DNA of 64,000 nucleotides from an uncultured Candidatus Saccharibacteria bacterium (lineage in GTDB: Bacteria; Patescibacteriota; Minisyncoccia; Phycocordibacterales; UBA918): positions 26,718 through 90,717 of the forward strand of contig CAYGTV010000003.1 of NCBI GenBank assembly GCA_964353135.1, read 5' to 3'. This document shows, in pieces, positions 5,038 through 62,409 of this stretch. The translations under genes were made by a program, and so were the position numbers. The notes beneath the pieces are model-generated. The model saw only the letters and a program-made list of their open reading frames with translations. It ran no database searches and was not told the DNA's origin. Numbering within the stretch: the stretch's first letter is position 1; each line of letters starts with the position of its first letter.

Positions 5038-5111
5038 TGTCGACGGGAAGAATTGAACTTCCGACCTCAACTTTATGAGTGTTGCGCTCTAACCAACTGA
5101 GCTACGCCGAC
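5038..5111 (-). tRNA. tRNA-Met (anticodon CAT), elongator type, or possibly tRNA-Ile2 (lysidine).
   Basis: Reverse complement GTCGGCG-TA-GCTCAGTTGGTTAGAGC-G-CAACA-CTCATAA-AGTTG-AGGTC-GGAAG-TTCAATT-CTTCC-CGTCGAC-A. Py11:Pu24 marks an elongator-type D-stem; there is no GGG/CCC anticodon stem. Confidence 0.85.
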
Positions 5112-10712: not shown

Positions 10713-10916
10713 CCAAAAGATGTATAGGTTCTGTAAGAACCTGAATCGTCCCAGAATAGCGGCTCGTTTATTTCACTTCGTTCATAAACCAGACTCGCTT
10801 TCTTGGACGGCTCCTCGAATTTTTATTCGCCTGAACAGCTCATAAAAATATACTCCGGAGCTTCGATTCCGGAAGAAAACAAAACTATTTGTTTTCTGCC
10901 CCGCACATTAAGCAAA

Positions 10917-10946
10917 GAAAAACACCAATATAAAATCGGTGTTTTT
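10917..10946. terminator. Terminator downstream (minus-strand sense) of the intron-containing tRNA.
   Basis: aaaaacacc-aatataaaatc-ggtgttttt. Confidence 0.6.
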
Positions 10947-10955
10947 CTTTACTTG

Positions 10956-11284
10956 TTGCGGGGCCCGGAATCGAACCGGGGTCTGGAGGTTCTGTTCTTC
11001 CAACACTTTCATGCTGGCATGGACTATCCCATATTCCTTAGCCTAACTAGTAGGAATTTTTCATTATAGTCTCTGAACCTTCCGTCCGCCTAGGCGGAGG
11101 GCTTGGCTGCCGATTGCCGAATCTTGTTTATTTTAAAGCATTCACGCTTACCCTCTCGAGTTACGTTGTAGCTAAACAAGCTCTCACGGTGTTCCAGCAA
11201 TTTCGAAAATTTTTCCACATAATATTTCTACTATGGGTCACAGTTACCCATGAGCCTCCCGAGATACCTCTTCTCTACCCCGCT
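10956..11284 (-). tRNA. tRNA-Met/fMet (anticodon CAT) split by a group I intron. Exon 1 is 11250..11284, exon 2 is 10956..10991.
   Basis: Exons join to AGCGGGG-TA-GAGA-AGAGGTA-TCTC-G-GGAGG-CTCAT|AA-CCTCC-AGAC-CCCGG-TTCGATT-CCGGG-CCCCGCA-A. The anticodon loop CTCATAA is identical to the tRNA-Met at 5038..5111. A11:U24 and a 1:72 mismatch are initiator-like. The intron sits directly 3' of anticodon nucleotide U36. Confidence 0.7.
10992..11249 (-). ncRNA. Group I self-splicing intron (~258 nt) inside the tRNA(CAT) anticodon loop.
   Basis: Follows an exon U and ends in G (..GAACAG|AA). Carries the canonical P7 elements: R GGTTCAGAGACTA (forward 11067-11079) and S GGATAGTCC (11021-11029). A P4/P5-like GGCAATCGGCAGCCAAGCC resembles GGCAATCCTGAGCCAA of cyanobacterial tRNA-Leu introns. 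No internal ORF. Confidence 0.7.
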
Positions 11285-11381
11285 ATATATTTATTCAGTT
11301 GTGACCGAGAGTGTAACACTACCAGATTCTATTGTCTAGCAAATAAACACACATGGTATAATTACCTCCGAACTATAGAGC

Positions 11382-12056
11382 ATGGCAAAAATAAAAGAAA
11401 AAGAATCTGCATTACAACTTCGCAAAGAAGGCACGAGCATAAAGCAGATAGCAAGACTGCTGAGTGTAAGCCCTAGTACAGTTAGCGTATGGTGTCGTGA
11501 TATCCAACTATCAAAAGAGGCTATTAGCAGACTTACCCTGTCAGGAAATGACCAAGCTACTGCTGCTTTGATTGCCTACTCACAAGCAAAACGCGAGACT
11601 AGAGAAAATAATACTAAAAATAATTACGCTGTAGGAGCAAAGTTGATCGGAGGGCTATCTGACAGAGACGTACTCTGTATTGGCCTAGGTTTGTACTGGG
11701 GTGAAGGTTACAAAAATGGTAATCGAGAATTTGGTTTCACTAATAGTGATCCAGCTATGATCCAATTTTATATACATTGGTTACAAACTGTATTTAACAT
11801 ACCTACCACAGATTTAACTTTACGAGTCAGTATTAACGATCAGCACACAAATCGAATAGATATTGTGGAGAAATATTGGGCAAAAATCACTAATGTTCCT
11901 CTGAATCAATTCACAAAATCGAGTTTGATTAAAACGTTATCAAAAAAACACTATTCAAACCATCATAGGCATTATGGCACTCTTAGAATTAAAGTAAAAC
12001 TTGGTAGTGACTACCGAGAGCAAATACTAGGTGCAATTGAGCATATAAAAATTTAG
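11382..12056 (+). CDS. Putative LAGLIDADG-type homing endonuclease with N-terminal HTH domain; moderate confidence.
   Basis: N-terminal HTH (TSIKQIARLLSVSPSTVSVWCRD). Central single motif ...VLCIGLGLYWGEGYKNG (GLxxxGDG-like, Glu in place of Asp) followed by an I-CreI-like helper region. Divergently placed ~100 nt from the 5' end of the intron-bearing tRNA. Confidence 0.4.
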   Translation: MAKIKEKESALQLRKEGTSIKQIARLLSVSPSTVSVWCRDIQLSKEAISRLTLSGNDQATAALIAYSQAKRETRENNTKNNYAVGAKLIGGLSDRDVLCIGLGLYWGEGYKNGNREFGFTNSDPAMIQFYIHWLQTVFNIPTTDLTLRVSINDQHTNRIDIVEKYWAKITNVPLNQFTKSSLIKTLSKKHYSNHHRHYGTLRIKVKLGSDYREQILGAIEHIKI

Positions 12057-60710: not shown

Positions 60711-60877
60711 TGTCGTCTTATTTCTACTCATGCTATCGCCTTCTGACACATCTGGGCTATAGTTAACTGCATGAGGGGCAATATCAAGATGTCGCACGTT
60801 ACGACATACCGCGCTGCTACCACACGTTTACTCGGCTACCAATAAGATAGCACATTTAATTAAATTGTCAATAGATG

Positions 60878-60964
60878 CGGAGAGTAAGGGATTCGAACCC
60901 TTGGAACCCGTAAAGGCTCGGCAGTTTAGTAAACTGCTGCTTTCGACCACTCAGCCAACTCTCC
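60878..60964 (-). tRNA. Class II tRNA, Ser-like (discriminator G, long variable arm) with apparent anticodon ACT (unusual).
   Basis: Reverse complement GGAGAGT-TG-GCT-GAGTGGTCGAA-AGC-A-GCAGT-TTACTAA-ACTGC-CGAGCCTTTACGGGTTCC-AAGGG-TTCGAAT-CCCTT-ACTCTCC-G. The anticodon arm is a perfect 17-nt palindrome. Confidence 0.6.
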
Positions 60965-62324: not shown

Positions 62325-62409
62325 CGGAGACGAGAGGATTCGAACCTCCGGGGGCGTGAACCCCACTTCCTTAGCAAGGAAGCACGATAGACCACTCTGA
62401 CACGTCTCC
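62325..62409 (-). tRNA. tRNA-Ser (anticodon GCT), class II.
   Basis: Reverse complement GGAGACG-TG-...-CTTCC-TTGCTAA-GGAAG-TGGGGTTCACGCCCCC-GGAGG-TTCGAAT-CCTCT-CGTCTCC-G. Confidence 0.85.

Follow-up and report, generated by a model that had tools for sequence, protein, structure and literature searches.

A 258-nt group I intron at position 36/37 of an initiator-type tRNA(CAU) gene in a probable member of the Patescibacteria

The split tRNA gene and its surroundings

The window, by which we mean the whole 64-kb stretch of DNA that was analyzed, has a GC content of 44.7% and carries on its minus strand a tRNA(CAU) gene whose anticodon loop is interrupted by a group I intron (Table 1). The neighbors of the split gene are bacterial and include LigA, GatC/GatA, and a type IV pilus cluster, and the gene lies approximately 1.5 kb downstream of gatA, as it does in related Patescibacteria loci. 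Among GTDB species representatives, the best match to GatA was a Candidatus Parcubacteria MAG (72% identity), followed by Paceibacterota, Nomurabacteria, and similar groups, and the closest relatives were nearly all Patescibacteria (top 21 of 80). Given these nearest relatives, the GatA sequence places the host among the Patescibacteria (CPR), probably as a Paceibacteria- or Parcubacteria-like member.

Read on the minus strand from 11284 to 10956, the gene runs AGCGGGGUAGAGAAGAGGUAUCUCGGGAGGCUCAU / GGGUAACUGUGACCC ... GGAAGAACAG / AACCUCCAGACCCCGGUUCGAUUCCGGGCCCCGCAA, with slashes at the two splice sites. The last base of exon 1 is U36, the 5' splice-site U; the intron begins with GGGUAACU and ends with AACAG, its omegaG lying at 10992; and exon 2, which has the variable loop AGAC and the discriminator A73, does not encode CCA. 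When the exons were joined in silico (11284-11250 plus 10991-10956), ARAGORN recognized a canonical 72-nt cloverleaf tRNA-Met(CAT), and the restored anticodon loop, CUCAUAA, is also that of the tRNA at 5038-5111. A search with Rfam RF00028 (Intron_gpI) matched 11262-11000 on the minus strand at 60.1 bits, above the gathering threshold of 50 (E value, 9.8e-13); the match is full length (model positions 1-253 of 253) and is the sole intron match in the window. Only the 36/37 junction yields a U at position -1, a terminal G, and a class I tRNA with the 7-nt loop CUCAUAA. Exon 2 begins with AACC and not CAUAACC, which speaks against a 33/34 insertion of the classical fMet.2Ug kind. No homing endonuclease gene was found in the intron, whose longest same-strand open reading frame is 42 amino acids. 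The original prediction had proposed a group I intron that interrupts a tRNA(CAU) in its anticodon loop, from 11249 to 10992 with a U before it and a G at its end, and had named the RF00028 search as a check and the tRNA at 5038-5111 as the source of an identical loop. The Rfam score, the covariation described below, and the spliced 72-nt tRNA bear out the intron, the proposed boundaries proved exact, and the two loops are indeed the same.

Table 1. Features of the split tRNA gene in window coordinates; all lie on the minus strand
Feature	Coordinates	Strand	Observations
Promoter-like site, TAGACA-17-TACACT	11310..11338	-	Match to consensus only; count of such matches not above shuffled expectation
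Exon 1	11250..11284	-	Acceptor 5' strand, D-arm, anticodon-stem 5' strand, C32 U33 C34 A35 U36
Group I intron, 258 nt	10992..11249	-	Rfam RF00028 and covariation in 23 homologues
P1, exon UCAU (11253-11250) with internal guide GUGA (11241-11238)	11238..11253	-	Four pairs invariant in 23/23
P2 hairpin, 7 bp, GNRA loop	11218..11235	-	Two-sided changes in all 7 pairs; also in MFE fold
P3 5' strand, UUUUC (pairs with 11062-11058)	11205..11209	-	Compensatory changes in 3/5 pairs; 100% of cells paired
P4-P6 domain	11077..11199	-	P5, P5a, P5c, and P6 rich in compensatory changes
P4	11199-11194 with 11113-11108	-	Invariant or one-sided variation only
P5 and extension (P5a, P5b, P5c with GAGA loop)	11189-11117	-	Extension of ~60 nt
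P6	11107-11077	-	Covaries at nearly every pair
P7 5' strand, G-(bulged A)-GACUA, in R element GGUUCAGAGACUA	11067..11073	-	Invariant in 23/23; matches Rfam consensus
P3 3' strand, GAAAA	11058..11062	-	Preceded by invariant 4-nt J7/3 (UAAU)
P8 hairpin, base UUCC/GGAA	11034..11056	-	Distal part variable; pair 229:251 covaries (U-A, A-U, C-G), rest invariant
P7 3' strand, UAGUCC (S element)	11021..11026	-	Invariant in 23/23
P9.0 (UG/CA, 2 bp, abutting terminal G) and P9 hairpin, invariant GAAA loop	10993..11019	-	Covariation
Exon 2	10956..10991	-	A37 A38, anticodon-stem 3' strand, variable loop, T-arm, acceptor 3' strand, A73
A/U-rich hairpin, 15 bp	10914..10950	-	Read from sequence; begins a few nt past the discriminator base

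The gene is flanked by two candidate expression signals. The promoter-like site has a TG ahead of its second hexamer and ends approximately 25 nt upstream of the tRNA 5' end. On the other side, the A/U-rich hairpin is likely to be a transcription terminator or a processing hairpin, judging from its sequence and position, and in homologues a hairpin is also found directly 3' of the tRNA. The terminator scan did not call this hairpin because it has few G-C pairs.

Fold of the intron and its covariation

The structure was drawn by hand on the window sequence, and covariation was counted on an alignment of 23 sequences. Homologues were retrieved by scanning metagenome contigs for the exact 20-mer AGGTTCAGAGACTATAATGA, which runs from P7 through J7/3 into the beginning of P3'. 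This pattern occurred in 59 contigs, and in 40 of these the intron of the window recurs in the same tRNA at 36/37; such recurrence, together with the strong covariation, excludes chance. The other 19 contigs have a low GC content (17-38%) and no tRNA and were set aside as other group I introns with a common core. The alignment comprises 23 distinct pre-tRNAs with 68-89% identity to the window, in which the invariance of P7, J7/3, and P3' is partly by construction, since the homologues were retrieved by an exact 20-mer there.

Across the 23 sequences, standard pairs fill 98.0% of the cells, compared to 85.6 ± 0.4% in shuffles and 38-44% when the partners are slid; derivation of the structure from the window sequence favors it over the slid controls and leaves the compensatory counts unaffected. 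Two-sided changes were present in 45 of 89 pairs (27.4 ± 2.4 in shuffles), the covariation score was 0.368 versus 0.128, and the observed values for pairing, two-sided changes, and covariation were each reached in 0/500 shuffles. Covariation extends to nearly every pair of P2, P5a, P6, and P9, and compensatory changes also occur in P3, P5, P5c, P8, and P9.0. The invariance of P1, P4, and P7 is expected of a catalytic core and is partly due to the search pattern. An independent MFE fold recovered P2, P4-P6, P7, P8, P9, and the tRNA arms (z = -3.3).

The fold by hand, which had been proposed as a further check, could be drawn with P1 (U·G with the guide) and all of P3-P9, with support from covariation. 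In P1, which has only four secure base pairs, the splice-site U stands in a U·G wobble in 23/23 sequences, and the 8-nt loop L1 consists of the first nucleotides of the intron. The loop of P2 is GAAA in the window and GUAA in most homologues. Both the R element GGTTCAGAGACTA and the S element GGGATAGTCC are present and, as the original prediction had it, pair as P7, which does not vary in the 23 sequences; the 5' strand of P7 presumably contains the guanosine-binding G-C pair, and P7 and P3 together make up the core pseudoknot. The 4-nt J7/3 (UAAU) leaves no room for P7.1/P7.2. Toward the 3' end, P9 shows compensatory changes in 6/7 pairs, the G-C pair of P9.0 becomes U-A in five sequences, and the terminal intron G is invariant in 23/23. 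In one natural variant (L126), the P5 extension is missing entirely and L1 contains a 20-nt inserted hairpin, so that both the P5 extension and L1 are peripheral.

Several alternative pairings were considered. The Rfam registers for P1 and P3 contain several mismatches each and were replaced by the covariation-supported hand registers; for P3, the hand register is offset by one from that of Rfam and agrees better with the covariation. Extension of P1 by G29:C50 was refuted, given that position 50 covaries with position 67 as part of P2. P1 could possibly be extended by G30:C49 across a C·C mismatch, and P2 could possibly be extended by C48-G70 and C49-G69; the bases involved in all of these alternatives are invariant. 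A canonical P10 would amount to at most 1-2 bp, and a P10 formed by the first three nucleotides of the intron (AGG/GGG) with the CCU of exon 2 was not adopted, its conservation being only partial. Tetraloop-helix contacts of the common type may be present, as suggested by the GAAA of L9 and the CC:GG base of P8, both invariant, and by the GNRA loop L2.

Membership in the group I family suggests that the intron is self-splicing. The precursor would be transcribed as a single RNA in which the loop nucleotides UCAU and the guide GUGA form P1, putting U36 in the U·G wobble. Free guanosine held in P7 would attack after U36, and the terminal G of the intron (10992), placed by the 2-bp P9.0, would then occupy the guanosine site; attack of the 3'-OH of U36 on the 3' splice site would join CUCAU to AA and restore the loop CUCAUAA. 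P1 takes up loop nucleotides only and so leaves the anticodon stem of the tRNA (G27-G31 with C39-C43) free to form in the precursor. As a canonical P10 is also nearly absent, we infer that this stem could align the exons in place of a real P10, which would resemble the situation in the Azoarcus pre-tRNA-Ile intron at the same site after CAU.

Orthologous genes and identity of the host tRNA

In many related loci, a single initiator-type tRNA(CAU) gene of 72 nt lies shortly downstream of gatA, and the split gene of the window is its orthologue. The intron is patchily distributed, and this gene was found in one of three states. It is uninterrupted in L005 (2547-2618), L008, L004, and L007, where it reads ...GGGAGGCUCAUAACCUCC...; exon 1 of the window matches the 5' halves of these four genes exactly or almost exactly, and the L005 gene agrees with the spliced product of the window at 70/72 positions, the two differences forming a compensatory D-stem pair. 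L002, the closest relative, shares the 36/37 intron, which is 262 nt long there and scores 60.2 bits with the Rfam model. In L006, L011, L013, and L017, an unrelated intron of IC3 type interrupts the gene at 33/34 (GGCU/CAA...G/CAUAACC, with slashes at the splice sites). The best match of these four introns is an IC3 tRNA-fMet intron of an Omnitrophota genome (46-111 bits), and by sequence they are of the classical fMet.2Ug class. With three gene states in close relatives, the locus offers a compact natural system in which to study how group I introns that lack an endonuclease gene are gained and lost.

The spliced tRNA has an A1·A72 mismatch, an A11:U24 pair, the acceptor stem GCGGGG/CCCCGC, and A73, and this stem and discriminator are those of E. 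coli tRNA-fMet. A11:U24 is A-U in 23/23 sequences, and position 72 is A throughout the family, mismatched with C1 or A1 and in a Watson-Crick U1:A72 pair in members with U1. The second tRNA(CAU) of the window (5038-5111) has a paired G1:C72, and relatives encode further elongator-like CAU tRNAs nearby. The anticodon stem (A29:U41, G30:C40, and G31:C39) has two of the initiator's three consecutive G:C pairs, and the A29:U41-type departure is common to most of these Patescibacteria initiator-type genes. The host tRNA is likely to be the initiator, its role in formylation and initiation being presumed; A11:U24 and the 1:72 mismatch had also been the grounds on which an initiator-like host was first suggested, and both are present.

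The same intron could sit in an elongator tRNA-Met or in tRNA-Ile2 (CAU, lysidine), which we consider unlikely in light of the initiator hallmarks at 1:72 and 11:24 (the latter invariant in the family), the fMet-like acceptor stem and discriminator, and the existence of separate CAU tRNAs in the window (G1:C72) and, of elongator-like form, near the orthologues. An Omnitrophota tRNA whose gene carries an IC3 intron at 33/34 has a similar acceptor stem and anticodon arm and was assigned as fMet by best hit (92% identity) to a Patescibacteria tRNA labeled fMet. An elongator or Ile2 host would still account for the anticodon CAU, which is common to all three tRNA species, and for the two out of three G:C pairs at 29-31:39-41; tRNA-Ile2 is indeed the host of the classical Azoarcus-type intron (Ile2.5Ug), which follows CAU at 36/37, and similar Microgenomatia genes were labeled "Met" by best hit in Nakagawa et al. 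(PMC13011429). A different isotype altogether is suggested by tRNA-finding software. In default mode, ARAGORN called five tRNAs in the window and missed the split gene; in intron mode, it found a 258-nt intron with the boundary shifted by 2 nt and called the gene tRNA-Leu(CAG), and ARAGORN -i likewise gave tRNA-Leu(cag) with a reported 258-nt intron for L002. The expectation that standard tRNA finders would under-call this gene was therefore correct. Taken literally, the intron-mode output would make the host a tRNA-Leu(CAG) with its intron two or three nucleotides further 5' (33/34 or 34/35), to which we give practically no credence: the 5' exon and the intron would both end in C and not in U and G, the variable loop of the host is only 4 nt, compared to the long variable arm of bacterial tRNA-Leu, and every intron-less orthologue reads CUCAUAA. 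Both the boundary and the isotype were rejected on these three grounds. The call also matches a 2-nt boundary shift that is a known ARAGORN/tFind artefact for Patescibacteria tRNA introns, as described by Nakagawa et al. (mSystems 2026, PMC13011429).

A further consideration is whether the split gene could be a decaying relic, with a ribozyme that has lost splicing and an initiator tRNA that comes from another gene. P1 is short, and with a window of 64 kb, a second initiator gene may lie outside it. However, the core elements are all intact, the gene lies at the syntenic site where the initiator gene is conserved, and in the 23 diverged copies compensatory changes have preserved every helix and both exons are perfectly tRNA-like, which indicates purifying selection on ribozyme and tRNA and makes a relic very improbable. 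Sequence, boundaries, fold (by covariation), and orthology to intron-less genes are direct observations here. Taken together with the probable identity of the host, they argue strongly for an initiator-type tRNA(CAU) gene of a Paceibacteria-like member of the Patescibacteria, split at 36/37 by a compact 258-nt group I ribozyme.

This arrangement has consequences for genome annotation and possibly for the cell. The initiator tRNA gene, here and in many environmental relatives, is invisible to default finders and appears as Leu(CAG) in intron mode, and without intron-aware mapping by the U(-1)/terminal-G rule, genome completeness and tRNA repertoire would be misestimated in Patescibacteria. Should the organism have no other initiator gene, every start of translation from its very small genome would depend on the ribozyme.

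Relation to known tRNA introns

[quoted passage not shown] Williams (2020 preprint) describes four classical bacterial classes, all IC3 (Leu.3Ug, Arg.5Ug, fMet.2Ug, and Ile2.5Ug), to which 17 new classes were added, and gives a frequency of 0.49 interrupted tRNA genes per genome for metagenomic assemblies of unnamed phyla. A survey of 95 complete Patescibacteria genomes by Nakagawa et al. (mSystems 2026, PMC13011429) identified group I introns in 22-25 tRNA genes, mostly in Asn/Asp at 35/36 with two in Met(CAU) at 33/34 from Microgenomatia; nearly all are classed as IA and none as IC, and in vitro self-splicing was shown for some related Patescibacteria tRNA introns. The suggestion that a tRNA group I intron would be new in this lineage fails, since GatA places the host in the Patescibacteria and such introns are already known there (Williams 2020; Nakagawa et al., PMC13011429). 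Current understanding is unchanged in this respect, as the phenomenon is already published for Patescibacteria.

The combination of an fMet host with the 36/37 site is possibly new, and an earlier listing as "fMet.5Ug" is conceivable. No Patescibacteria entry in Tables 1 and S3 of Nakagawa et al. has a 36/37 site in an initiator-type tRNA, and in the part of their Table S5 that was covered, the fMet entries are all 33/34 and IC3. We tentatively propose, at somewhat less than even confidence, that the intron represents an undescribed class, "fMet.5Ug," a non-IC3 ribozyme of the Patescibacteria lineage that is specific for the initiator 36/37 site, is widespread in environmental Paceibacteria, and coexists in one clade with intron-less alleles and an unrelated IC3 33/34 intron. 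If so, the single initiator gene of a reduced genome would have been colonized independently by two ribozyme lineages, and the dependence of splicing on guanosine or GTP could let it gate initiator tRNA supply.

A profile HMM of the window family was compared to labeled introns. The closest were Patescibacteria Asn "IA" introns (50.4 and 45.6 bits), followed by an Actinomycetota Lys "IB2" intron (23 bits), and three labeled IC3 introns scored lowest (10-13 bits). By this sequence comparison, the core is not of IC3 type, and the resemblance to cyanobacterial tRNA introns noted in the original prediction was misleading, the profile being lowest on IC3 and highest on Patescibacteria "IA" tRNA-Asn. 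Subgroup IA is defined by P7.1/P7.2 between P7 and P3' (the definition of Michel and Westhof), and the window intron departs from this definition as well, its J7/3 being a 4-nt UAAU that is invariant in the 23 sequences. The blastn matches to group I introns of Staphylococcus, Bacillus, and Vibrio phages have 70-79% identity over approximately 115-140 nt of the P3-P7 core; they cover the conserved core only, in some cases under annotated protein-coding genes, and have no exon context in common with the window intron.

The window intron resembles the classical fMet.2Ug introns (33/34, IC3, first found in cyanobacteria) in the type of host gene, the anticodon-loop location, the U at -1, the terminal G, the sporadic occurrence among relatives, and the group I assignment, with self-splicing inferred for the window intron. 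It differs in lying 3 nt further 3', at 36/37, and in its guide, which pairs with UCAU, whereas that of fMet.2Ug pairs with the stem and U33. The R element is GGUUCAGAGACUA in the window intron and GGUGUAGAGACUA in fMet.2Ug, and the family profile gives approximately 13 bits on the IC3 fMet intron compared to 50 on the Patescibacteria Asn introns. In the Azoarcus-type intron, P1 involves the same CAU/GUG pairing with a U·G wobble as in the window intron. This tRNA-Ile2(CAU) intron (Ile2.5Ug, IC3, 205 nt) also occupies the same 36/37 site directly after CAU and has a likewise minimal architecture with GNRA loops on P2 and P9 (Williams 2020; PMC13168695). The window intron differs from it in having an initiator-type and not an Ile2 host, a core that is not IC3-like, and an extra P5a-c extension of approximately 60 nt.

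Within the same phylum, the tRNA-Met(CAU) introns at 33/34 in Microgenomatia (GCA_001029755.1 and GCA_013426185.1; Nakagawa Table S3) have a similar host tRNA (NGCGGGG...CCGCAA), and one of them ends in ...acagaacag, compared to ...agaacag in the window intron; however, they have the 33/34 site and no significant match to the family HMM or the window sequence. The closest labeled relatives by sequence, also of the same phylum, are the Patescibacteria tRNA-Asn/Asp introns (35/36, IA), which have P4', P6, and the R element GGAAGGUUCAGAGACUA in common with the window intron. These introns are likewise missed or miscalled by ARAGORN, and they self-splice in vitro, as described by Nakagawa et al. 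(PMC13011429). They are distinguished from the window intron by their site at 35/36 in Asn/Asp as opposed to 36/37 in fMet, by a P7.1-like hairpin between P7 and P3' where the window intron has the 4-nt UAAU, and by the HNH endonuclease genes that some Asn introns carry and the window intron does not.

Other features in the window

The intron and exon 1 of the interrupted initiator-type tRNA gene are crossed in antisense by two mechanically called open reading frames (Table), which are probably not genes. Either could be annotated as a hypothetical protein, which would hide the tRNA. Elsewhere in the window, the tRNA-Ser with anticodon ACU carries an A at position 34, within the anticodon loop UUACUAA; outside tRNA-Arg(ACG), a bacterial tRNA with A34 is, as far as is known, uncommon.

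Table. Locations of the features described in this part
Location	Strand	Feature	Remarks
Window 10803-11069	+	ORF, 88 aa, TTG start	Antisense to the intron of the tRNA gene
Window 11114-11476	+	ORF, 120 aa, TTG start	Antisense to the tRNA gene
Window 60877-60964	-	tRNA-Ser(ACU)	Rfam tRNA, 57.9 bits
Window 62325-62409	-	tRNA-Ser(GCU), ordinary	~1.4 kb from tRNA-Ser(ACU)
L126:580-852		Natural minimal variant of the 36/37 intron	202 nt
L011:9648-9932		Interrupted tRNA gene	Close to gatA
L012:12888-13177		Interrupted tRNA gene	Close to gatA
L005:6658-6923		Interrupted tRNA gene	Close to gatA
L006:4854-5139		Initiator tRNA orthologue	IC3-type intron at 33/34
L011:6230-6507		Initiator tRNA orthologue	IC3-type intron at 33/34
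L013:4460-4739	-	Initiator tRNA orthologue	IC3-type intron at 33/34
L017:8189-8510	-	Initiator tRNA orthologue	IC3-type intron at 33/34

A minimal variant of the intron and tRNA-less contigs that share its core

The metagenome contig L126 carries a homologue of the window's intron that wholly lacks the P5a-c extension and holds a 20-nt hairpin insertion in its P1 loop; the anticodon stem of its tRNA contains a U31·G39 wobble. The exact 20-nt P7-J7/3-P3' core is also common to 19 metagenome contigs without a tRNA (GC, 17-38%; L085, L087, L088, L092, L093, L103, L106, L107, L109, L117, L118, L119, L124, L127, L128, L133, L134, L139, and L140), and four of those tested gave an Rfam group I intron match at 64-75 bits.

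Interrupted tRNA genes in related Patescibacteria

Additional tRNA genes near gatA are interrupted in relatives. Two of the three are tRNA-Asp(GTC) with an intron of ~210 nt, and the other was called by ARAGORN as "Arg(gcg), 192-nt intron," a pattern corresponding in Table 1 of Nakagawa et al. (mSystems 2026, PMC13011429) to tRNA-Thr(GGU) with a divergent group I intron at 36/37. The IC3-type introns of the four initiator tRNA orthologues, all from metagenome-assembled genomes (MAGs) of related Patescibacteria, had an Omnitrophota IC3 fMet intron as their top match (46-111 bits). Among the 95 complete Patescibacteria genomes surveyed by Nakagawa et al., no tRNA intron was reported to be of IC type, so the IC3-type introns in these MAGs indicate that draft genomes broaden the picture.
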